Assembly: GCA_024277025.1 (NCBI GenBank)
Contig: JAJRWA010000082.1
Coordinates: 13,169 to 77,168 of the forward strand
Direction: 5' to 3'
Length of the DNA stretch: 64,000 bases
Source of the DNA: Candidatus Krumholzibacteriota bacterium
GTDB taxonomy: Bacteria > Krumholzibacteriota > Krumholzibacteriia > LZORAL124-64-63
Below, in pieces: positions 1 to 13,762 of this stretch. The translations under genes and the position numbers were made by a program. The notes beneath the pieces were generated by a model. That model was not told the origin of the DNA and did no database searches. It saw only the letters and a list, made by a program, of their open reading frames with translations. The stretch's first letter is position 1; every line of letters begins with the position of its first letter.

Positions 1-2
1 TG

Positions 3-950
3 CCTTTCCTGGCCGGGGAAGAATACGGCGGCCATCCGGTCAACGAGATTCTCGAGTACTTGACGGAAATGAAGGTGCTGCACCACAGCGGCGATCGCTA
101 CCACTGGATGGCCGACACCTATCCGGCCGAGGATGTGAGCCTGCGCAGCGCCGCGCCGGACAACGTGGTGATCATCGACCGCACCGTGCCCGGTGGGCGC
201 ATCATTGGCGAGATGGACCTGTTCAGCGCCCAGGAAATGCTGCATGACGATGCGATCTACATCCACGGGGCCCAGCAGTATCACGTGGACAAGCTGGACT
301 GGGACCGCCGCGAGGCCCACGTGAAATCCGTGGCGGTGGACTACTACACGGATGCGCAGCGCAAGAGTGAGTTGAAGACTTTGACGGCGGACATCGAGCG
401 GCCGTTCGGCGTGGGGCAGTTGGCCGTGGGCGAGGTCGGCCTGATTGCCAAGGTCACCGTGTTCAAGAAGATCAAGCTGGGCACGCACGAGAACGTCGGG
501 GCCGGGCGCGTGCACCTGCCCGAGATGGAGATGCACACCACGAGCTTCTGGTGGGAACTGCCGGATGACTTGCTGTCGGTCATGGCTGCCGAGGGTCATG
601 ATTTGGGGGACGCCCTGAAGGGCCTGGCCCACCTGCTGGGCCGGGTGGCGCCGGTGTTCATCATGGCTGATATGTCCGACCTGCACAGCACCGCCATGGT
701 ACGCTCACCGTTTACCGGCCTGCCGACCCTGTATTTGTATGATGCCTTCCCCGGCGGCGTCGGATTTGCGCGCCGGATCTATGAGCAATTCGGCGAGATC
801 TGCGGCGCGGCCCGTGAGCACCTGCGGCGCTGCCCCTGCGGTCATGGCTGTCCGTCGTGTGTGGGCGCGGCGGCGGACTCGGGCAACACGGCCCGGGGCG
901 GCGCGTCCTGGCTGTTGGCTCGGGTCGGGCAGGCTGTCGGCGAGGCCTGA
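3..950 (+). CDS. C-terminal portion of a DEAD/DEAH-box helicase with a DUF1998-type four-cysteine zinc-finger domain (MrfA/YprA-like). The 5' end lies outside the window.
   Basis: The reading frame is open to the window edge, and the TTG at 60 is only the tracker's nominal start. The C-terminus carries a CPCGHGCPSCV four-Cys motif typical of DUF1998 domains fused to superfamily-2 helicases. It is immediately followed by a DnaQ-like exonuclease, as in Bacillus mrfAB. Confidence 0.6.
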   Translation, partial: PFLAGEEYGGHPVNEILEYLTEMKVLHHSGDRYHWMADTYPAEDVSLRSAAPDNVVIIDRTVPGGRIIGEMDLFSAQEMLHDDAIYIHGAQQYHVDKLDWDRREAHVKSVAVDYYTDAQRKSELKTLTADIERPFGVGQLAVGEVGLIAKVTVFKKIKLGTHENVGAGRVHLPEMEMHTTSFWWELPDDLLSVMAAEGHDLGDALKGLAHLLGRVAPVFIMADMSDLHSTAMVRSPFTGLPTLYLYDAFPGGVGFARRIYEQFGEICGAAREHLRRCPCGHGCPSCVGAAADSGNTARGGASWLLARVGQAVGEA

Positions 951-952
951 AC

Positions 953-2155
953 ATGGACCTGAAGAAACGTCTGGCCCAGTTGGACCGTCTGACCCGCCGG
1001 CCGGCCGAGGATTTGTCTCCACTTGCCGCCTCCCGGCCAGCGGACCCCGCCGGAGCTCTGGACGAGTTGGGACTGACCCGGCACGAGGGCGCAGCCGGCC
1101 CCGTCTGGTACCGGGAACAGCAGGATGACCTCGCGCCGCCGCCGGATCCGCTGCCTGACCTGACAGGGTTATTCAGCCAGTCGGCGGCCAGCGCACCGGC
1201 TGTGGCCGGGCTGCTGCTGCTGGACACCGAGACGACCGGCCTGGCCGGTGGTACCGGCACCCTCGTGTTTCAGCTCGGGCTGAGCTGGTGGCAACGCGGA
1301 CGGCTGCACACGCGCCAGTACTTTCTGCCCGGACCGGCCGACGAGGCGGCGATGCTGGCGGATCTGGCGGCTCTGGCCAACCGGTTCACCCATGTCGTGA
1401 CCTACAATGGGGCGTCGTTTGATTTGCCGCTGCTCCGGACCCGGGCCCTCCTGAACCGCACACCGGATCCCCTGGGGCATCTGGCCGGCTGGGACCTGCT
1501 TGTGCCGGCGCGTCGTCTGTGGCGCAATCGTCTGCCCGATTGCCGGCAGCAAACCATAGAGTCGGCGATTTGCGGGCGACACCGCTCGGCGGGGGATATC
1601 GACGGCGCCCGGATTCCCCAGACCTGGTTTGATTTCCTGCAGACCGGACGTCCGGGACTGCTGCCGCGCGTCCTGACCCACAACCAGCGGGACATGGTGG
1701 GGATGGCTGATATCCTTGGGCGGGTGGCGGCGGTCGGCGGGTGGCTGGCGTCAGCGCAAGGTTCCGCTGAATGGCCCCTCGCCGCTGTGGCTGACGACCG
1801 GGCGGGAGCCTGGGGGCTGGCTCGGATCTGCGAGCGCCGCCGGGAACAACCGGTCGCGGCAGCCTGCTGTCGGCGGGCCTGGGCGGGCGCGTGGGGCGGA
1901 GTGGCTTCTGGGCCGCTGCGCCGGCGATTTCGCCGGGACATGATCCGGATTCTGAAGCGGGAGCGGGAGTGGGAACTGGTTGAACAGGTGATCCATGATG
2001 GCTTAGACTCTGATCCGCAGGACGCCGGTCTGCAACGCGAGGCCGCGATTCTCTATGAACACCGGCTGGTGGATCTGCCGCGGGCGCACCACCACGCCGT
2101 GGCGGCCGGTGACGGGCATCGGACGGCACGGCTGGAACGGTTGCTGGCTCGCTGA
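953..2155 (+). CDS. DnaQ/DEDD-like 3'-5' exonuclease (RNase H-like fold), MrfB/YprB-like
   Basis: Exo I motif LLLDTETTGL, Exo II motif YNGASFDLPLL and a later H..D motif (HNQRDMVGMADIL). The ATG at 953 sits 3 nt after the upstream stop, so the long N-terminal extension in the ORF track (from 857) is probably not translated. Confidence 0.65.
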   Translation: MDLKKRLAQLDRLTRRPAEDLSPLAASRPADPAGALDELGLTRHEGAAGPVWYREQQDDLAPPPDPLPDLTGLFSQSAASAPAVAGLLLLDTETTGLAGGTGTLVFQLGLSWWQRGRLHTRQYFLPGPADEAAMLADLAALANRFTHVVTYNGASFDLPLLRTRALLNRTPDPLGHLAGWDLLVPARRLWRNRLPDCRQQTIESAICGRHRSAGDIDGARIPQTWFDFLQTGRPGLLPRVLTHNQRDMVGMADILGRVAAVGGWLASAQGSAEWPLAAVADDRAGAWGLARICERRREQPVAAACCRRAWAGAWGGVASGPLRRRFRRDMIRILKREREWELVEQVIHDGLDSDPQDAGLQREAAILYEHRLVDLPRAHHHAVAAGDGHRTARLERLLAR

Positions 2156-2163
2156 AGGAGGGT

Positions 2164-2601
2164 GTGCTTGTGAAGATGACCAGACAGGAAGCCCAGGTCC
2201 TGACAGCTGCGATCCGGGTTCAGGCCCACCTGCTGGAGCGTTCGCCGACTCCGGCGGAGGTGGCGGACCTGCTGCGGCTTTCGGAGACCGCGGTTCGCCT
2301 GCAACTGAACTTCCTGGCGGATCTCGGGGCGGTGATTTTGGTCGACAGCGCCTTTGCGACCCACGTGGAGGTCAAGGATCATCTGGCGGTGGAGACGCTT
2401 GCCGAGGCGGAGGGGCCGGCCTTGAGCGAGGACCTCAGGGAGTTCGACCGGCGCAAGCAGGCCGAGGCCGATCGCATGGCCCAGTTGTTCGATTCCGGCG
2501 AGACGGCGCGTGAGCAGCAGGAAAAGCTGGACCGGATGGGGGATGAGCTGAGGAAATTCAAACGGCAGAAGCCAGCCAACCCGTTTGGGGACGACGACTG
2601 A
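2164..2601 (+). CDS. Hypothetical protein with a predicted winged-helix/HTH segment and a charged coiled-coil tail
   Basis: Complete ORF tightly following the exonuclease gene. The segment PAEVADLLRLSETAVRLQLNFLADLGAV resembles a wHTH recognition helix. The C-terminus is acidic and lysine-rich. Confidence 0.45.
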   Translation: MLVKMTRQEAQVLTAAIRVQAHLLERSPTPAEVADLLRLSETAVRLQLNFLADLGAVILVDSAFATHVEVKDHLAVETLAEAEGPALSEDLREFDRRKQAEADRMAQLFDSGETAREQQEKLDRMGDELRKFKRQKPANPFGDDD

Positions 2602-2621
2602 TCGGCGTCACTTTCGGTCGG

Positions 2622-2660
2622 GAAAAGAGCCGGGGCCCGTGGGCACCCGGCTCTTATTCA
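2622..2660. terminator. GC-rich hairpin between convergent genes, acting as a rho-independent terminator for ppiD(-) and possibly bidirectional
   Basis: AAGAGCCGGG-gcccgtgggca-CCCGGCTCTT forms a 10-bp perfect stem. On the minus strand it is followed by a TTTTCCC tract. On the plus strand the following tract (attcattgtc) is weaker. Confidence 0.6.
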
Positions 2661-2686
2661 TTGTCTGGGCCGTCGGTGCCGCGGCC

Positions 2687-4498
2687 CTACCGGGTCCGAT
2701 AGCGGTTGTCGACAATTTCAGCCGCCGCGATCTGGTCATCGAACCATTTGTTGATGACTTCGCCCTGGGCGCGCTGCATCAGGACGGCACGCAGGCCCGC
2801 CTGGCGCTGATCGAAGTCGGCCTGGTCCACCGGGGCGATCCACAACGGCGTGGCGGCAAAGACGCCGCGCAGCGTGGGGATCTCGGGAATCAGCCTACCG
2901 ACGGTGCCGGTGATCACCTTGAGATTGAAGTCCGTACCATAGCCGACGCCATCGACGTTGCCGTTGGCCGTGAAGGTGTCGGTGACCGCATGGGCCAGGC
3001 CGTAGGCACTGGCAACCTCGGCCATCGTCTTGCCCAACTGAACTTCACCGACTGCCGGTGCCAGCTTGGCCTTGGCGGCGGCCAGATTGTGCTCTTTGCG
3101 CACCGCCAGGCTGACCTGCCCCTTGACCTCGTCGAGGGGGCGGGTGCCGCCGGGGATGGTGCCCTCAGCCAGCACGATGTAGTAGAAGTCGCGGTTCTCG
3201 AAGATGCGGCTGACCTCGCCGGCGTCGGCGCCGAAGGCCCACTGGCTGCCCCGCAGGGAAAGTGCAACCGAAGGAATATCGCGGCCGGCGGGGAAAGGTT
3301 CGGGCGAGACGAGGTCCAGCGCCTCAGCTTCGGCGGTGGTCGCGAAATTCTCCCCGGTGACCCGCAGGCGGAAGTTCTCGGCGGACTGGCGAATAAGGTC
3401 CAGGGTGTCGGGGCCAGGCTGAACCTTCAGCAGGATGTGCCGGGCTTCCACCTCGTACACCTCACCGGTTCCACTGTCCAGGGAACGGTCGGTCACTTCG
3501 ATCAGGTGGTAGCCGAACTTGGTCTTCACCGGCTCGCTGACTTCGCCGACCGGGAGCTCGAAAGCCACCGCGGTTAAGGGGGCGACCATCCGGTTGCGGT
3601 CGAAGCGGCCCAGGTCACCACCGCGCGCGGCGCTGCCCGGGTCTTCACTGTATTCCGAGGCGGCGACGGCGAAATCCTTGGCCCCGGAGAGGATCTCTTC
3701 GCGGATGGCCTGAATGTCGAGCAGAACGTCGGCGTAGTCGGCTTCGCTGGGGGTCTTGGCGAAGCGGACGACCTGGGCCTTGGCCAGGGTGTCGACCCGG
3801 TAGTCGTCCTGGTGATCGGAATACCAGGCGGCGATCTCATCGTCGGTGGGTTCGTAGCCGTCACCAAGGTCGGCGAAGGTGGCGCCCATATATTCGGCAA
3901 CCGCTCTACCGGTCTGACGGATATACTCCTCACGCAGCTCTTCGTCAGTGACCGAAGCAAGGCCGGCGATCTCGTCGTTGAGTTTCTGGCGCGGCAGGAT
4001 GGTGCGGATATAGTTCTCGGCGCTGGTCCAGTCGTTGGCGGGATCCTGCAAGGCCGAGTAGTAGGCATTCATGTCCACGTTGCCGCTTTCATCGCGGAAC
4101 TGGTTGAGAATCTCCATGGGTGGATTGTTCTGGAAGACAGCCAGAACTTCCTCGTCGTCGACCTTGATCTTGCGATCGGCGATGGCCTGCTCGATGATCA
4201 GGTTACGAATCAAGGCGTCCCAGGCCTGGGTTTCGGCGATGGCGTACTGGTTGGCGTTGAGCTCCTGGTTGCCGCCCTGCTGACGCATCTGGCTGACCTG
4301 CTGGCGCACGGCGAAATCATACTGCTGGGCGGTGATCTTATCGCCGTTGACCGAACCCACGATGCCGGGCTCGATGGAGTTGGACCCTGGTGCCTGGCAA
4401 CCCCGGCCGGTCATGCCGCCGAGGAACAGGAACAGGATAAACGAACCGGCGATCACCCAGTAAAAGACCTTGGCCTGCGAGCGCAGAAACTTGAACAT
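2687..4498 (-). CDS. ppiD: Periplasmic chaperone / peptidyl-prolyl cis-trans isomerase PpiD
   Basis: N-terminal membrane anchor ([18 protein letters not shown]), long SurA-like chaperone region and a parvulin PPIase signature ([14 protein letters not shown]...GYHLIEV). At 603 aa it has the length typical of PpiD. Confidence 0.8.
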
Positions 4499-5275: not shown

Positions 5276-6349
5276 ATGAGAGTCGTCGCTTTGGCCAATC
5301 AGAAGGGTGGTTGCGGCAAGACCACGACCGCGACCAATCTGGCGGCTGCCCTGGCCCAGATGGACAAGAAAGTTCTGCTGATCGATAACGACCCCCAGGG
5401 GCATTCCACCCTGGCCTTCGGCTTCCACGAGCGCGACTTCACCCTCGGCACCTACGATCTCTACCTCACGTCGGACATTCTGGTGGAGGACGCCTTTCTG
5501 GCGGTGTCGCCCAATCTGCACGTGGTGCCGGCCGGCATCGAGCTCAGCGCGGTGGAAATGACGCTGGCCCGCGAGGCCGAGCGGGAACTGCGGCTGCGCC
5601 GGAATCTGCGCCGCAGTGCCATGCCCTACGACTACGTTCTGATCGATTGCCCGCCCAGTGTCAGCCTCCTGACGTTCAATGCCCTGCTGGCCTGCGGCGA
5701 GGTGCTGATCCCCGTGGATCCGAGCAGTTACAGCCTGCAGGCCGTGCGTAAGATGCGTGAAACGTTGTCCGTGGTCAGGGAGAAGAAGGGCCACGACATC
5801 GTGCCCCGTATCCTGATGTCCGACTTCGACACACGGCCGCTCTTCGTCCGCAAAATCATGGAAGAGCTGATCGAGCTCTACGCCGACGAACTGCTCGACA
5901 CGGTCGTGCATCACACCGTGCGCTTCCGGGAGGCGGCCGGGGCCGGCGTACCGGTGATCCTCTACGACCCGGAGTCCCGCGGGGCCCTGGACTTCGCCAG
6001 TCTGGCCCGGGAATTGGCCGCCCAGGAAGTGTCGGTCAAGGTGGCGGCGCTGGACCACTGGTCGGCGTTGCTGCACGGGCCGCGGGTCTCGCCGGCCGGG
6101 GTGCTTTTCGAGGCCGATTTCCCCAGGGCCAAGACCGTACGCATCACCGGATCGTTCTGCGACTGGTCGGCCAAGGGCCTGCCCCTGAACCGGCGGGAGG
6201 ATGGGGCCTGGGAGTGTCGTCTGGAGCTTGAAAGCGGCCGGTATGAGTACCGTTTCATTGTGGACGGGGCGTGGTTGCCCGATCCCCACAACACCGAAAC
6301 GGTGGCCAACGAGTTCGGGGGAGCCAACAGTCAGGTGGTCGTGGGCTGA
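5276..6349 (+). CDS. ParA/MinD-family P-loop ATPase fused to a C-terminal CBM48 / AMPK-beta glycogen-binding domain
   Basis: N-terminal deviant Walker A KGGCGKTT and a Soj/ParA-like core (LLIDNDPQGHST, LIDCPPS). The last ~90 aa (AKTVRITGSFCDWSAKGLPLNRREDGAWECRLELESGRYEYRFIVDGAWLPDPHNTETVANEFGGANSQVVV) match the AMPK1_CBM/CBM48 consensus (GSFnnWs...L.r....w...l.LppGeYeYkFiVDGeW.hDP). Confidence 0.8.
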   Translation: MRVVALANQKGGCGKTTTATNLAAALAQMDKKVLLIDNDPQGHSTLAFGFHERDFTLGTYDLYLTSDILVEDAFLAVSPNLHVVPAGIELSAVEMTLAREAERELRLRRNLRRSAMPYDYVLIDCPPSVSLLTFNALLACGEVLIPVDPSSYSLQAVRKMRETLSVVREKKGHDIVPRILMSDFDTRPLFVRKIMEELIELYADELLDTVVHHTVRFREAAGAGVPVILYDPESRGALDFASLARELAAQEVSVKVAALDHWSALLHGPRVSPAGVLFEADFPRAKTVRITGSFCDWSAKGLPLNRREDGAWECRLELESGRYEYRFIVDGAWLPDPHNTETVANEFGGANSQVVVG

Positions 6350-6393: not shown

Positions 6394-7203
6394 ATGTCAC
6401 GACAACCGCCCGGTTCGCACCGGCACCAACGGCCGGATGGGCAGGTGCACCACATCTCGTCGATCGCCCACCTCTTTCTGGCCGAGGACGAACTGGCGGC
6501 TGAGAGCAGACGTTGCGGGGCCAGCCAGAGTTTTGCGGTGACCTGCTTCCACGATTCGCGGGTTTCCGCTTTCGTCTGCGGGGCGTTGGCGACGGCCGCC
6601 CGCCAGGTTGCCGGCCGCGGCGGGGGACGTCCAGTCCGGTTGCGGGAGGATGCTGGCCTGGCCTGGTCCGTGCGGTCTTTCCTGGCGGATGACAAACTGG
6701 CCGCTTCCCGGATGGCCCGGGGGCAGCCGGGTCATTGGACCTGGTCGCCCGAGGGTTCCGGTGCCGGGGCGGCGGGTCTTGTCCAGTGGAGCCACCTGGC
6801 GGACAACCGTGATTTCGAGGCCGACGAGATAGAGCCGGACGGCGCTATTATCTGCCTCCTGGCCTGCGAGGTGGGCCAGTTGCCCGCCGGCGTGCGTTTG
6901 GGGCGGCTGTTGGGACAGCTCCGGCCCCGCCGTCTGGAGATTCTGGTCTTTCCTGACGAGTGGGCAACGGAACGGCTGCCGGCCAGTGAAGGCCGAGGGT
7001 GGCGGGGCTTCGGTGGGGGCGGACAGGCGGCACTGCTGGCCCGTTGCCGGGACCTGACCCGGGCCATCGGCGGCTGCTGTCCGGTGACGATCACGACTCT
7101 GCCGGCCAACGGCGCCGGCGAGGCCGGCGCCGGCACAACCTCGATCCTGCACAAACTGGCCCAGCGCCTGCTGGGCGATTTTTCGGTGGACCCCGGCTCC
7201 TGA
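6394..7203 (+). CDS. Hypothetical protein downstream of the ParA-CBM48 gene, a candidate partner or adaptor
   Basis: An ORF in a different frame whose first ATG beyond the parA stop is at 6394. The long track ORF starting at 6271 overlaps parA and is rejected. No recognisable domain. Rich in Ala, Arg and Gly. Confidence 0.4.
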   Translation: MSRQPPGSHRHQRPDGQVHHISSIAHLFLAEDELAAESRRCGASQSFAVTCFHDSRVSAFVCGALATAARQVAGRGGGRPVRLREDAGLAWSVRSFLADDKLAASRMARGQPGHWTWSPEGSGAGAAGLVQWSHLADNRDFEADEIEPDGAIICLLACEVGQLPAGVRLGRLLGQLRPRRLEILVFPDEWATERLPASEGRGWRGFGGGGQAALLARCRDLTRAIGGCCPVTITTLPANGAGEAGAGTTSILHKLAQRLLGDFSVDPGS

Positions 7204-7260
7204 CTCCCCTTAGTCTGACCCGCGAGAGACCGCATCTGTTCCCGATTCGCGGAGGCCCCA

Positions 7261-7847
7261 TGAGATCTGCCACGAACAGCCCATTTCTTGGTCGCCTGTT
7301 CGCTTGCCGCCTGTTCGCTTGCCACCTGTTCGTTTGCTGCCTGCTGCTGGGTGGGCTGGTCGCCAGGGCGCCGTCTGCGGCGGCTGCGGAGCGTACGACC
7401 CTCGGCCGGCCCGGCTATCTGGTGATCGAGGGCGTCCGCGACTCCAGTGCGGTGTTCACCTGGCAGGAGGGCCCGGGGCCCGGTCGCCATTCACTGGTGT
7501 GGCCGGAGGGCACACTCAGCCTGCCGTCCGGGCAGAACCTGGACGACTACGGACGGTTGGATGCGGGAGTGGCCTGCGGAGCGGAATTGTCCGGGGTCGG
7601 CGGCAGTGGCCACCTGGTCTTTAACGACGGACTGTACGTCGTCTCGGAGCCGATTGTCCTGGCCGACGGCACCCTGGAACTTCATGTGTCGGCCGGTGAA
7701 CTGGAAATCCGCAGCAACCAGATTCGCTATCGACGGCCCGTGATCGAGGATCACAGCAGTCAAGCCAACTATATCTTTCTGGCCGGGCTGGTCGTGCTGA
7801 TTGTGGTCCTGATGCGCCGGGTGCGGAAGCGGCTGAGGAAGTCTTGA
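7261..7847 (+). CDS. Hypothetical exported protein with an N-terminal signal peptide and a C-terminal transmembrane anchor
   Basis: MRSATNSPFLGRLFACRLFACHLFVCCLLLGGLVARAPSAAAAE looks like a signal peptide. The C-terminus is hydrophobic (IFLAGLVVLIVVL) followed by basic residues RRVRKRLRK. The signal-peptide region is encoded by a 15-bp tandem repeat. Confidence 0.5.
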
Positions 7848-9232
7848 GCAAATTGGTGGACTTGTCTTCGGGCCGGGAGCAGACGGCCTGGTGGTTGCTG
7901 CAGGCCGCCTTGTTCACGCTGCCCTGGATCGGCGTCGGGACAGCGGCCGTCGTGACGGGACGCGACCTGGGCGCCGGGCTGCAGCCATCCTGGCTGGCGC
8001 TCGCGCTGGTGGTCATTCTGCGGGCGCGGGCTATCGTGGAATTTCTGGCCGAGACACGACGATCCTGGCTGGTGGCCGCCGGACCGCTCGCAATGGCGGT
8101 CCTGATTTCCGGGCTGGGAATCTGGGTGGCGCCGTCCGGTGAAGCGGACTCCACGACCGTTCTGCGCTTTGGCAAGCAGATTGTCCAGTTGGGTGTGATG
8201 CTCGCCTTTGTGGTCGTTCCAGCCTTCTACCTCTGGCGGGGCTGCCCCCTGGCGCGGCTGATGCGACCCCTGGCCTGGGGGGCGGTGTTTCAGGTGCTTT
8301 ACGGGGCCGTGCAAGGGGTCAATTACTTCCACCCGCTGCCGGTGATGCCAGCATTGGCAGGATTCTTCACCTCCAATCCCGCCATTTTGTCAGGTTCCGG
8401 TCAATTGTACCTCAGCAACGCCCTGCAGGACGTGCCACGACTGCGGGGGACTGCCTGTGAACCGCTGTATCTGGGCAACTACCTGTTGTTGGCCCTGCCG
8501 GCCGTGGCCCTGACCAAGTGGCCTCGGCGGCGACAGGTGACCGTGGCCGTGGCGTTGGCGGCCCTGCTCTTGCTGACCTGGTCCCGGGGAGCCTGGCTGG
8601 CCGCCATGGCCGCTGGCGCATTCTGGGGCCTGGGTTCGCTTCGCAACGGCCTGCCTGGGTGGCGGGCCGGGAGCGGGCGCCGGCTTGCCTGGGTCGGCGC
8701 GGCCGTCGTCGGGGCCGTCGCCCTGGCCGGTGCGCTGGGGCGACCGGAGGTCTGGCTGCCCTGGCAGCGACTGATCCAGTCCTTCAGTCTGGTGGATTGG
8801 TCGAACCTCACCAGGCTCTACAGCATGCAGGCGGCCTGGCGGGCGTTCCTGCTCAGCCCGCTGATTGGAATCGGCTGGGGCCAGTTCGGCTTCCATTTCG
8901 TGGCTTTGGTGGACCCGATGGGGCTGCAGGCCATGTTCACCTGGCCGGTGGTCAACAACTTCCCGCTGGAGATACTGTGCGAGACGGGAGGACTGGGGGG
9001 ATTGTCGCTGATCTGGCTGGTATGGGTTCTGGCCGGGAAAGTGCGCCAGCGTTTGCTGGCCGGCTCGCCCGGCGACCGTGCGGCCGTTTTGTTGCTGGCA
9101 GCGGCCTCGCTGGGGATCTGGGTGCAGTTGCTGACCTTCTCGCAGTACAATCTGCCGCACATCTGGGTGGCTTTGGGCTTGCTTTGCGGTACCCTGGGCC
9201 CGACCACAGCAACCGGGGAGGGACAGCCATGA
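7844..9232 (+). CDS. O-antigen ligase / Wzy_C-family polytopic membrane protein
   Basis: Many transmembrane segments and the Wzy_C-like motif TWSRGAWLAAMAAGAFWGL with a periplasmic loop. Start and stop overlap the neighbouring genes by 4 nt (operon-style coupling). Confidence 0.65.
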   Translation: MSKLVDLSSGREQTAWWLLQAALFTLPWIGVGTAAVVTGRDLGAGLQPSWLALALVVILRARAIVEFLAETRRSWLVAAGPLAMAVLISGLGIWVAPSGEADSTTVLRFGKQIVQLGVMLAFVVVPAFYLWRGCPLARLMRPLAWGAVFQVLYGAVQGVNYFHPLPVMPALAGFFTSNPAILSGSGQLYLSNALQDVPRLRGTACEPLYLGNYLLLALPAVALTKWPRRRQVTVAVALAALLLLTWSRGAWLAAMAAGAFWGLGSLRNGLPGWRAGSGRRLAWVGAAVVGAVALAGALGRPEVWLPWQRLIQSFSLVDWSNLTRLYSMQAAWRAFLLSPLIGIGWGQFGFHFVALVDPMGLQAMFTWPVVNNFPLEILCETGGLGGLSLIWLVWVLAGKVRQRLLAGSPGDRAAVLLLAAASLGIWVQLLTFSQYNLPHIWVALGLLCGTLGPTTATGEGQP

Positions 9233-11797: not shown

Positions 11798-12443
11798 CCA
11801 TCTATCTGCTCTGGATCCAGCCTCTGACGCGGTGCTCGAATTGGGTAGCGGCGAAGGGCGCCTGAGCGCCCGCATCGCCGAGCTGGCCGGCGGGTGCGTG
11901 CGTTTGGAGCGGCGGCGGCCACAAACCGGTGTGGTCTGCGATCTGGTCGGGGATGCGCGCTTTCCACCCGTCAGGCAGCGGTCATTGGCGGTTGTCGTGG
12001 CGGCGAACCTGGTCAGGCATCTGCGTCCGCGGCAACGGCTGGGAGAGTGGCTGGAGTCGTGGCGGCGCCTGCTGCGTCCGGACGGCGCCCTGTACATCCT
12101 GGAGGATGACCCCGATCCGACGGTACCGGCGCAGAGAAACTTCCGGGACCTGCAGCGATTCCTGGCCCGCTTGTTGCCCGAGTCACGGGGAACGCTTTTG
12201 GGATTGAACCGGTTTCGTGAGAGTGTGGCCTCTGGCGAGGCGGCCGCCGGCTGGACCTTCGGCTATCAACAGAACGGTGTGGGAGTGGATCCGACTGAAG
12301 TGCTGCGGCTGTTGAGTGCCGGACAGGGCCGGGTTACCGGGGCCGAGGCTGCGCTGAGCGAGGCGATCAGTCGGGATGGGATCGCGCCTGGCCGGTACTG
12401 GTGGGCCCGGGCGGAAGCCCCTGGCGATGAGGTGGAACGATGA
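11763..12443 (+). CDS. Class I SAM-dependent methyltransferase
   Basis: Glycine-rich SAM-binding motif VLELGSGEGRLS and an acidic motif ALYILEDDPD. Start taken at the ATG at 11763 (MSFSPLPKNF), which overlaps the upstream gene's 3' end. The long upstream extension in the track (from 11583) is rejected. Confidence 0.6.
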   Translation: MSFSPLPKNFTDHLSALDPASDAVLELGSGEGRLSARIAELAGGCVRLERRRPQTGVVCDLVGDARFPPVRQRSLAVVVAANLVRHLRPRQRLGEWLESWRRLLRPDGALYILEDDPDPTVPAQRNFRDLQRFLARLLPESRGTLLGLNRFRESVASGEAAAGWTFGYQQNGVGVDPTEVLRLLSAGQGRVTGAEAALSEAISRDGIAPGRYWWARAEAPGDEVER

Positions 12444-13762
12444 AGAGAACAGGTGTCTGGCTGGCCTTGGGTGCTCTGTGCGGCGGGCTGGTTCTGGCCA
12501 CGCTGGCACCGCGCTCGGTGGTGGACTGGCGGGCGGTGCGGGCCATCGGCCTGGAGAGCGATGATTGGGGCCTGGCCGGATTCGTGCCGCGGGCCGACAG
12601 CTGGCAGGGACTGGACCGCGAGGCCCTCAAGCCGGGGCGATTCCCGCCCGTCTACTGGGGGTCCACCCTGGAGGACGCGGCGGTGGTCGAGCGAATGACC
12701 AGTGTGCTGGCCGCTCACGTCGGGCGCGACGGAGTGCCCGCGGTGTTTCAGCCCAATTATGTGATGGGTTCGTTGGGATACGATGAGGCTGACGGACGTT
12801 GGCAGTCGTACGAATTGCCCCACTGGCCGCCCGAGTACCCGCGGCCCGGGTTGTGGCGGGCGGTCGTACAGGCGCAGGCCCGCGGGGTGTGGCATCCGGA
12901 GTTGCACGCGGCGCTGCACTATGATCCGGAACTGCGGCAGAGTCGGGGGCTGGAGTCTGAGCTGGCCCGCGCGGTCACCGGTCGTGGGATTACCCTGTTT
13001 CCTGGCAGCGAACAGGCCCGTGAACTTTCGCCGGGACGGTCTGCTGAAGCCATGACAGCTGAATTGGCTCACTCGCTGGCCGTATTCGCGCGCGTGTTCG
13101 GGCGACCGGCGGGATCAATCATTGCGCCGGACTACACGTGGTCCGGCTGGCATGAGAGATTGTGGCAGGAGCGCGGTCTGTCGGTCATTCAAGCCAAGCG
13201 GGAACAACTGAACCCTTTGTGGCTGTCCGGCATGCCGGGTCGGATTCAGAAGTACCTGGACCGGCAATGGGCCAAGCTGACCCAGTTTGGCCGCACCTAT
13301 CTGGAACGCAATTGCCTGCTGGAGCCGGTGCAGTCGGACGACGCGGCTGCCGTAGTGGACCGCTGCCTTGAAGACACGCGCCGGGCCTGGCGCCGGGGAC
13401 AGCCGGCAATCGTGGAAACCCATCGGGTGAACTTTGCCCATACGGACCCTCGCATTGTTGCGACGGGGCTCGAGGCGCTGGACGACTATCTGTCTGCGGC
13501 CTGCCTGCTCGATGGCGGGCCGGTCTTCCTGTGCGACACCGAGATTGCGCAGCTGACGAGGCGTGGCGTGAGTTGGCGGCGGTCCGGCGGCCAACTGGTA
13601 CTGCGCAACGCGACCCACTCCGCCCGGGTTCTGACCCTGTCGGTGGCCGAGTTGGCAACGTGCGGCCTGGTTGGTCGGCAGCCCGTTTTTATTCTGCTTG
13701 CGGCTGGTCAGGTTCTCCGGTTGGACCTGTCCGAGTTGAAGTTGCGCGGCAACTTATCCTGA
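12440..13762 (+). CDS. Hypothetical exported protein (signal peptide) of unknown function within the glycan cluster
   Basis: MKRTGVWLALGALCGGLVLATLA looks like a signal peptide. No domain could be assigned confidently by eye. The start overlaps the methyltransferase stop by 4 nt. Confidence 0.45.
   Translation: MKRTGVWLALGALCGGLVLATLAPRSVVDWRAVRAIGLESDDWGLAGFVPRADSWQGLDREALKPGRFPPVYWGSTLEDAAVVERMTSVLAAHVGRDGVPAVFQPNYVMGSLGYDEADGRWQSYELPHWPPEYPRPGLWRAVVQAQARGVWHPELHAALHYDPELRQSRGLESELARAVTGRGITLFPGSEQARELSPGRSAEAMTAELAHSLAVFARVFGRPAGSIIAPDYTWSGWHERLWQERGLSVIQAKREQLNPLWLSGMPGRIQKYLDRQWAKLTQFGRTYLERNCLLEPVQSDDAAAVVDRCLEDTRRAWRRGQPAIVETHRVNFAHTDPRIVATGLEALDDYLSAACLLDGGPVFLCDTEIAQLTRRGVSWRRSGGQLVLRNATHSARVLTLSVAELATCGLVGRQPVFILLAAGQVLRLDLSELKLRGNLS

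Follow-up and report, generated by a model that had tools for sequence, protein, structure and literature searches.

At the start of the window, the 64,000-nucleotide stretch of DNA analysed here, three open reading frames (ORFs) follow one another on the plus strand, where the preliminary description had placed them (Table 1). Although spurious long ORFs are common at 65% G+C, all three are regarded as real genes because their E-values and conservation lie far beyond chance. Their G+C content (0.65-0.67) falls inside the range of the window (0.60-0.70), and the composition of the region is not atypical. A promoter and terminator scan of window positions 1-3000 returned nothing convincing: no sigma-70-like sites were detected, and the two weak terminator-like matches fall within coding sequence and do not exceed what shuffled sequence yields.

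Table 1. Features at the start of the window.
Feature	Position	Strand	Remarks
mrfA 3' part (yprA-family SF2 DNA helicase), ORF1	3..950	+	last 315 aa; stop 948-950
Four-cysteine zinc site CPCGHGCPSC, MZB/DUF1998 domain	831..860	+	ORF1 aa 277-286
mrfB (yprB-family DEDDh 3'-5' exonuclease), ORF2	953..2155	+	400 aa; PF13482, 8UN9 matches
Winged-helix protein, ORF3	2164..2601	+	145 aa from GTG 2164, or 143 aa from GTG 2170

ORF1 spans the end of a winged-helix domain and the OB-connector-MZB 'canopy' of a helicase whose RecA1/RecA2 core, comprising the N-terminal ~480 aa, lies upstream of the window. The visible part had been given as 316 aa containing the cysteine motif; the motif is there, and the length is corrected by one codon. 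ORF1 aligns with residues 446-735 of Bacillus subtilis YprA/MrfA (PDB 6ZNP) at E 2.5e-87 and 45% identity. Within this alignment the zinc motif lies, position by position, opposite CPCHDGCPSC in the B. subtilis protein, all four zinc-binding cysteines being present. The Pfam MZB/DUF1998 profile (PF09369) matches aa 208-287 above its curated cut-off (E 2.3e-20). The C-terminal part of the TIGR03817 equivalog ('helicase/secretion neighbourhood') also matches, at profile positions 439-716 of 742; this assignment was rejected, as the match is partial and reaches 171 bits against a cut-off of 874.

The architecture upstream of the window was inferred from orthologous loci, which are at most 86% identical to ORF1. 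At the closest of these (L001:8558-10948, 86% identical) a protein of 796 aa carries, in order, DEAD, Helicase_C, WHD_HRQ1 and MZB domains, with E-values of 7.5e-35 for PF00270 DEAD and 1.4e-14 for PF00271 Helicase_C. The profile searches proposed in the preliminary description thus found DUF1998 in the window and Helicase_C in this orthologue. Against MrfA residues 9-735 the L001 helicase scores 911 bits (E 3.3e-273, 52% identity). A full-length helicase is encoded at all 80 related loci where the contig reaches far enough. Inserted or fused domains mark the defence-branch YprA helicases, and in the YprA phylogeny the helicases associated with MrfB fall in the repair branch (PMC12458937). No inserted domain of the defence-branch kind was found when the L001 helicase was aligned to MrfA, and such insertions are considered absent because the two proteins are collinear, with 5 gap positions in 732 columns.

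The second gene follows the helicase stop after 2 nt, and the same pairing is seen at all related loci that are long enough. Mechanically, ORF2 opens at GTG 857; the real start is placed at ATG 953, since a database protein of 400 aa (P0043) is 100% identical from that codon onwards. ORF2 matches PF13482 RNase_H_2 in Pfam (E 1.9e-29) and, by sequence, the MrfB crystal structure 8UN9 (E 4.9e-26). Residues D91, E93, D157, H243 and D247 align with the DEDDh set D107, E109, D172, H258 and D262 of MrfB, and L97 with its wedge leucine L113 (MrfB numbering as in the 33-279 construct of PMC11194089). Across 34 homologues neither the wedge leucine nor any of the five catalytic residues varies. The collinear helicase orthologue, the DEDDh residues and the short intergenic gap together bear out the earlier proposal that a DUF1998 helicase followed by a DEDD exonuclease reproduces the Bacillus mrfA-mrfB arrangement.

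An AlphaFold2 model of ORF2 (pLDDT 88.8) starts with a helix at aa 3-15, which is followed by a disordered linker (pLDDT under 50 for aa 16-25), a core at about aa 40-266 and seven helices at aa 283-399. MrfB itself is described with the same series of elements, the seven C-terminal helices included (PMC11194089). Near the N-terminus, conservation among homologues is 90% or higher at D2, L3, R6, L7, A8, L10 and D11, and the predicted helix and linker correspond to the MrfB element proposed to dock on MrfA. The C-terminal helices, of 11-17 residues each, have in the predicted topology the number and size expected for three TPR repeats plus a cap. A Pfam search gave no TPR profile match in ORF2, and weak sub-threshold TPR matches occurred in the orthologue at L080 only; the JGI label on ORF2 homologues is 'YprB with RNaseH-like and TPR domain'. 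Searched with Foldseek against the PDB, the model retrieves 8UN9 first (E 5.9e-8, 23% identity over the core), followed by chains of Pol alpha, Pol epsilon and T7 polymerase (PolB-proofreading type) and by TREX1. PDB matches of ORF2 to designed 'SAKe' proteins were set aside on inspection as probably spurious and driven by composition, namely an Ala/Trp/Gly-rich linker and C-terminal region.

The surroundings of the pair are conserved. The conserved order reads dNK-panB-panC-NTP transferase-HIT-LytR_C-(small membrane ORF)-tatA-mrfA-mrfB-ORF3, facing ppiD-DUF212-parA, and HPPK and Wzy_C are also included among the genes in the upstream 10 kb of orthologous loci and the downstream genes of the window. 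Practically every Krumholzibacteriia locus of sufficient length keeps this order around mrfAB, which persists to helicase identities as low as about 57%, and the whole 17-kb neighbourhood is syntenic within this clade. In 60 or more related genomes the genes flanking mrfAB are conserved housekeeping genes.

These surroundings bear directly on the suggestion, made in the preliminary description, that the genes are a candidate defence locus. Such a locus would be a piece of an anti-phage system with a YprA/DUF1998 helicase at its centre (DISARM, Druantia, Dpd, ARMADA or similar), cut by the window edge. DUF1998/MZB helicases are indeed central to such systems (PMC12458937). PADLOC, run on the window proteins and on the L001 locus, matched its DruE models to the zinc-finger stretch of ORF1 (E 5e-8, about 46 aa) and its BrxHI, SngC, DruE and DrmA models to the helicase core of the full-length orthologue. 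However, the helicase matches are partial, confined to the generic SF2 core or the zinc finger, and reach at most 161 bits (the best being to positions 6-349 of 698 of the BrxHI profile, in the full-length orthologue), compared with the full-length score to MrfA given above. Among the other proteins of the window's own trio, MrfB gave one weak sub-threshold DEDDh match and ORF3 none; the L001 orthologues of MrfB and ORF3, together with five downstream window proteins, gave no match to a defence model save one trivial P-loop match. No methyltransferase, which the preliminary description had suggested looking for along with PLD genes, was found in the 10 kb upstream of the orthologue or among the downstream window genes, nor were PLD or Vsr nucleases, DrmB, DruA-D or Dpd partners, the kinds of gene that accompany the helicase in YprA-based defence systems (DISARM, Druantia, Dpd, ARMADA, BRIGADE, TALON). 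The flanking genes have biosynthetic and envelope housekeeping roles in an order conserved across the phylum, the opposite of a variable defence island, the G+C comparison within the window reveals no compositional anomaly at mrfAB, and helicases associated with MrfB sit in the repair branch as noted above. A truncated anti-phage system is therefore highly improbable here. Judged by its sequence, the locus holds an ordinary repair module rather than an anti-phage system, and the plain MrfAB repair reading stands because the trio lies among housekeeping genes in its relatives, the outcome that the preliminary description had itself tied to that reading.

The third gene is of a different kind. 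Its database entry (P0001) begins at the second of the two possible starts, 2170, and is 143 aa long. The protein consists of a winged helix-turn-helix (wHTH) at aa 7-70, two long charged helices at aa 87-135 and a conserved KPxNPFGDD tail, in which P137, N139, P140 and F141 are invariant or nearly so. In its AlphaFold2 model (pLDDT 80.8, above 90 in the wHTH) the wHTH has the topology H-H-H-beta-beta, and Foldseek against the PDB relates it weakly to SmtB, CzrA and MarR (E ~3e-3, TM ~0.5 on target). No Pfam or NCBIfam profile matches ORF3 above its curated threshold, all NCBIfam E-values being at least 0.025; the sub-threshold Pfam matches are to Sigma70_r3, HTH_Crp_2 and MarR_2, and weak matches recur across family members. 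At the 50% identity level the family counts about 200 representatives, and it is without a curated Pfam or NCBIfam model. ORF3 is probably a DNA-binding protein.

Within the clade the position of ORF3 is fixed. Orthologues with 42-73% identity lie directly after mrfB on the same strand in 59 related loci, which are all those long enough to tell, and ORF3 is the last gene ahead of the convergent ppiD. The mrfB stop and the ORF3 start overlap by 4 nt in about 16 of these loci, and elsewhere the gap reaches up to 169 nt. Outside the clade the linkage dissolves. In the more distant Krumholzibacteriota loci L069-L078, mrfAB is kept and a cation-efflux gene occupies the ORF3 slot; in L079 and L080 the slot holds a gene for an RluA-type pseudouridine synthase and another unrelated ORF. 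Among distant members of the ORF3 family, neither mrfA nor mrfB was found within 6 kb at any of 81 loci, and of the 43 such loci that have 2 kb or more of upstream sequence, 41 have enolase as the divergent neighbour. One family member, P0181, adjoins a DtxR-like gene and an mrp antiporter operon and retains an NPF tail. The idea that the acidic tail is specific to ORF3 members linked to mrfB is weakened by this protein, which has no mrfAB neighbour.

ORF3 is thus a lineage-specific neighbour of mrfAB, placed downstream of mrfB in Krumholzibacteriia, and it is not a general component of MrfAB. The preliminary description was right about a wHTH plus coiled-coil protein foreign to the Bacillus operon; the tight linkage that it reported holds for this lineage and is not a property of the ORF3 family. 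In this lineage mrfB and ORF3 probably share a transcript. A lineage-specific three-component module could be imagined, in which ORF3 is a working partner of MrfAB in Krumholzibacteriia and acts either as a transcriptional autoregulator of the operon or as an adaptor that recruits or regulates MrfB through its wHTH or its KPxNPFGDD tail, for example by way of the TPR domain. The invariable place of ORF3 after mrfB (59 of 59 loci), the generally short gaps, its position as the final gene before ppiD and the strong conservation of the tail are all in keeping with such a module, and in about a quarter of the loci the overlap could couple the translation of mrfB and ORF3 and so give ORF3 some functional link to MrfAB. 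On the other hand, adjacency to mrfB carries little information because the whole neighbourhood is syntenic in the clade. The exonuclease-ORF3 gap can be as large as the maximum given above, mrfAB is retained with an unrelated gene in the slot, in other lineages family members lie away from mrfAB and usually beside enolase, and an NPF tail is also present in a family member next to an mrp operon. A three-component module is accordingly unlikely. Recruitment of ORF3 within Krumholzibacteriia, whether as a damage-responsive autoregulator or as an adaptor whose KPxNPFGDD tail would bind the orphan TPR domain of MrfB, is likewise unlikely; were the tail to bind that domain, it would offer a first handle on the partner of the MrfB TPR domain. 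Most likely, ORF3 is a small regulator or DNA-associated protein in its own right, linked to mrfAB by no more than a common transcript.

Window positions 3-2155 are thus very probably the 3' part of mrfA and the whole of mrfB from a chromosomal mrfA-mrfB (yprA-yprB) housekeeping repair operon, with ORF3 as an independent winged-helix neighbour. The homology and domain architecture, the residues for catalysis and zinc binding, the adjacency of the two genes and their housekeeping context all point the same way, and the MrfAB-like repair module of the preliminary description finds support in each feature that could be tested (helicase, exonuclease, juxtaposition and context). From the B. subtilis proteins we infer the activities, complex and lesion type of the Krumholzibacteriota MrfAB. 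By that analogy, MrfA would be a 3'-5' SF2 DNA helicase whose OB-connector-zinc-domain canopy may clamp single-stranded DNA during translocation. MrfB would be a Mg2+/Mn2+-dependent DEDDh 3'-5' DNA exonuclease, presumably docking on MrfA by its N-terminal helix. Where a bulky adduct sits, the two could together unwind the surrounding damaged strand and digest it, with no need of UvrABC. In Bacillus the lesions are monoadducts of the mitomycin-C type or intrastrand crosslinks, and similar lesions may be the substrates here. MrfAB function seems to be specific to the species, in that complementation needs closely related alleles (PMC12458937).

In the uncultured phylum Krumholzibacteriota the MrfAB pair belongs to the conserved core genome and keeps to a single housekeeping neighbourhood. 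The locus may also serve as a worked example of how YprA helicases of the repair branch can be told from those of the defence branch, by collinearity with MrfA, an MrfB partner and conserved synteny. Beyond annotation its significance is small, and nothing at ORF3 suggests a new mechanism.

Compared with B. subtilis MrfA (PDB 6ZNP, 6ZNQ and 6ZNS; PMC7797055), the helicase, as seen in the orthologue, has the same order of DEAD, Helicase_C, winged helix and OB-connector-MZB, and a gene for an MrfB-type exonuclease directly follows the helicase gene. It differs in belonging to the phylum Krumholzibacteriota, represented by MAGs; the orthologous ORF is also about 45 aa longer at the N-terminus than B. 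subtilis MrfA, with an uncertain start that overlaps a tatA-like gene. ORF2 shares with B. subtilis MrfB (8UN9; PMC11194089) the PF13482 domain, the five catalytic residues and wedge leucine, the N-terminal helix and flexible linker, a long insertion ahead of beta-1 and, as predicted, helical repeats at the C-terminus. The two are also similar in size, ORF2 having 400 aa and B. subtilis MrfB at least 413 residues (longest construct 33-413; PMC11194089). They differ in their low sequence identity (the Foldseek value over the core given above), and the C-terminal repeats of ORF2 match no TPR profile. With the defence-branch YprA helicases (DrmA/DrmB, DruE, DpdJ/DpdF and ARMADA; PMC12458937) the SF2 core and the DUF1998/MZB zinc domain are held in common. 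Unlike them, the orthologue is without BrxA-like or zinc-module insertions and without a fused nuclease, and, in contrast to their systems, the locus is without a split OB-CON-DUF1998 gene and without partner genes, and occupies a fixed housekeeping context. ORF3, finally, resembles the ArsR/SmtB and MarR regulators in that its predicted three-helix and beta-hairpin wHTH superposes on SmtB, CzrA and MarR. It departs from them in lacking metal-site residues and MarR-type dimerisation helices, and in carrying instead a pair of long charged helices and a conserved acidic tail that includes NPF.

The window edge holds three ORFs, all on the same strand, and both the reading frames and their domain matches bear out the three-gene arrangement given in the preliminary description. 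The mechanical ORF2 opens at GTG 857. Its real start is the ATG at 953, 2 nt past the ORF1 stop, because P0043, a 400-aa database protein, is 100% identical to ORF2 read from there.

Genes at the window edge and two further genes downstream
Feature	Coordinates	Strand	Remarks
ORF1 (mrfA 3' part)	3-950	+	315 residues; TGA at 948-950; open at 5' window end
ORF2 (mrfB)	953-2155	+	400 aa; ATG start
ORF3	2164-2601	+	matching database protein P0001 begins at 2170, two codons later
603-aa gene	2687-4498		convergent to ORF3; next gene downstream
ParA/MinD-like ATPase	5276-6349	+	AAA_31, E 5e-48; C-terminal AMPK1_CBM/CBM48 glycogen-binding module, aa 275-355
282-aa ORF	6999-7847	+	between parA-like and Wzy_C genes

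Residues 208-287 of ORF1 match the Pfam model MZB/DUF1998 (PF09369, E 2.3e-20), and ORF1 also aligns with the DEAH-helicase model TIGR03817 over that model's C-terminal 40%. Among solved structures the sole match is B. subtilis YprA/MrfA (6ZNP, residues 446-735, E 2.5e-87, 45% identity), whose zinc site CPCHDGCPSC aligns exactly with CPCGHGCPSC of ORF1. The helicase core lies upstream of the window, and full-length architecture was read from orthologous loci, chiefly L001, the closest related locus (86% identical). The L001 helicase (796 aa; DEAD, Helicase_C, WHD_HRQ1 and MZB) is collinear with MrfA residues 9-735 (E 3.3e-273), with 52% identity and five gap positions only in 732 columns. According to a 2025 survey of the YprA family, BrxA-like, zinc-module and nuclease insertions or fusions mark the defence-branch helicases, and MrfB-associated helicases form the DNA-repair branch (PMC12458937). 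With so few gaps against MrfA, the L001 helicase therefore lacks these defence-branch insertions and fusions. In L001, the roughly 600-bp 'gap' between the LytR_C gene and mrfA (8042-8661) is occupied by an ORF for an 87-aa membrane protein and by a TatA-like gene; because the longest reading frame of the helicase runs into the end of tatA, translation of the helicase probably starts downstream of 8558.

ORF2 matches PF13482 (RNase_H_2, E 1.9e-29) and the MrfB crystal structure 8UN9 (E 4.9e-26), for which the crystallised construct, residues 33-279 (PMC11194089), set the MrfB numbering used here. In the alignment, D91, E93, D157, H243 and D247 fall at the positions of the catalytic residues D107, E109, D172, H258 and D262 of MrfB, and L97 at that of the wedge Leu113; all six are invariant across 34 aligned homologues. 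In the AlphaFold2 model of ORF2 (pLDDT 88.8), a helix at aa 3-15 forms the N-terminus; after a disordered linker comes the exonuclease core, and aa 283-399 at the C-terminal end fold into seven helices. MrfB has been described with the same layout: an unstructured N-terminus bearing a docking helix, a core, and three TPR repeats plus cap (PMC11194089). Foldseek ranks 8UN9 top, ahead of chains from Pol alpha, Pol epsilon and T7 polymerase and of TREX1, much as B-family polymerase proofreading domains are reported to be the nearest structural relatives of MrfB (PMC11194089). Because a TPR profile search of the window protein gave no match, its C-terminal helices are taken as putative TPR repeats on structural grounds. 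The MrfAB-like repair module proposed earlier is thus supported by the MrfA and MrfB matches, the catalytic and zinc residues and the collinear L001 helicase.

Relatives were scanned using one genome per GTDB species; 274 were found and 80 loci kept, nearly all from Krumholzibacteriota MAGs at 49-86% identity. Upstream of the L001 helicase are genes for a TPR protein, aminotransferase, HPPK, deoxynucleoside kinase, PanB, PanC, nucleotidyltransferase, HIT and LytR_C; downstream in the window are those for a PpiD/SurA-like isomerase, DUF212 protein, ParA-like ATPase, an unknown ORF and a Wzy_C protein. By tblastn, virtually all related loci of sufficient length show this gene order (helicase 80/80, NTP transferase and HIT 66/80, PanC 63/80). 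G+C of positions 1-4000 is 0.65-0.67, within the whole-window range of 0.60-0.70. The mrfAB surroundings are a fixed core-genome neighbourhood, not a defence island. PADLOC matches are limited to the generic SF2 core (<=161 bits) or a 46-residue zinc finger; window MrfB gave one weak sub-threshold DEDDh match only, and the L001 MrfB and ORF3 orthologues and downstream window proteins gave none except one trivial P-loop match. An anti-phage locus, the other candidate raised from the sequence, was rejected on these partial, generic matches, the typical G+C and the conserved housekeeping neighbours; with the locus set among such genes in its relatives, the plain MrfAB reading stands.

One MAG (bin.63, JAZBOO01) carries an mrfA region on each of two contigs (81% and 80% identity to the window), which points to a mixed bin or duplication. 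The ParA/MinD-like ATPase gene is kept in related Krumholzibacteriia loci (57-86% identity); its CBM48 fusion is unusual and might denote a positioning ATPase tied to glycogen granules. The 282-aa ORF matched no Pfam or PADLOC model; at its C-terminal end, basic residues come after a hydrophobic segment.

ORF3 is a real gene, with orthologues 3' of mrfB in 59 loci (42-73% identity). In its AlphaFold2 model (pLDDT 80.8 overall), the winged helix at aa 7-70 is predicted with confidence (pLDDT above 90); aa 87-135 form two long charged helices, and the disordered tail after them bears the conserved motif KPxNPFGDD. This agrees with its earlier description as wHTH plus coiled-coil. By fold, it matches generic winged helices of the ArsR/SmtB/MarR type (E about 3e-3), and no curated profile matched above its threshold. 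Short mrfB-ORF3 gaps, with 4-nt overlaps in about 16 loci (heuristic start choice), suggest co-transcription in Krumholzibacteriia, and a lineage-specific functional tie to MrfAB is conceivable, to which adjacency is the sole pointer. In Krumholzibacteriota farther from the window (L069-L078), mrfA-mrfB and ppiD are retained, but the ORF3 slot holds a cation-efflux (CDF) gene; this slot is taken by an RluA-type pseudouridine synthase gene in L079 and by another unrelated ORF in L080. The CDF gene (PF01545 and ZT_dimer) lies at about 12150-13350, between mrfB and ppiD. At the 50% identity level, an exhaustive profile search counts 204 representatives of the ORF3 family, which has no curated model. 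Neither mrfA nor mrfB was found within 6 kb of distant members (0/81 loci; L081-L161, e.g. L083:6001-6402 and L111:3410-3781). Where at least 2 kb of upstream sequence is available (43 loci), a divergent enolase gene, assigned by inspection of sequences, adjoins these members in 41, and in many of those loci a CTP-synthase-like gene lies on its far side. An intermediate member (L162:6001-6531), which keeps an NPF tail and also has a long acidic extension, is flanked by a DtxR-like iron repressor gene on one side and a complete mrp/mnh Na+/H+ antiporter operon on the other. Given the replaced slot, the 0/81 count and the L162 context, ORF3 is part of an independent family of small wHTH proteins; its placement after mrfB is specific to Krumholzibacteriia, and it is not a general MrfAB component.

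The analysis shows the homology and architecture of the pair, its catalytic residues and zinc ligands, the coupling of the genes and their context; the mechanism may be proposed by analogy with Bacillus. MrfA would translocate 3'-5' on single-stranded DNA, its canopy gripping the strand; the MrfB N-terminus would dock on MrfA, and the freed 3' end would be degraded by MrfB, the two jointly clearing bulky adducts independently of UvrABC. This mechanism is drawn from Bacillus studies (PMC7797055, PMC11194089 and a preprint by Burby and Simmons, 10.1101/426304). Published MrfAB complementation data point to species specificity (PMC12458937). The locus adds a representative from an uncultured phylum to the already well-described MrfAB family.
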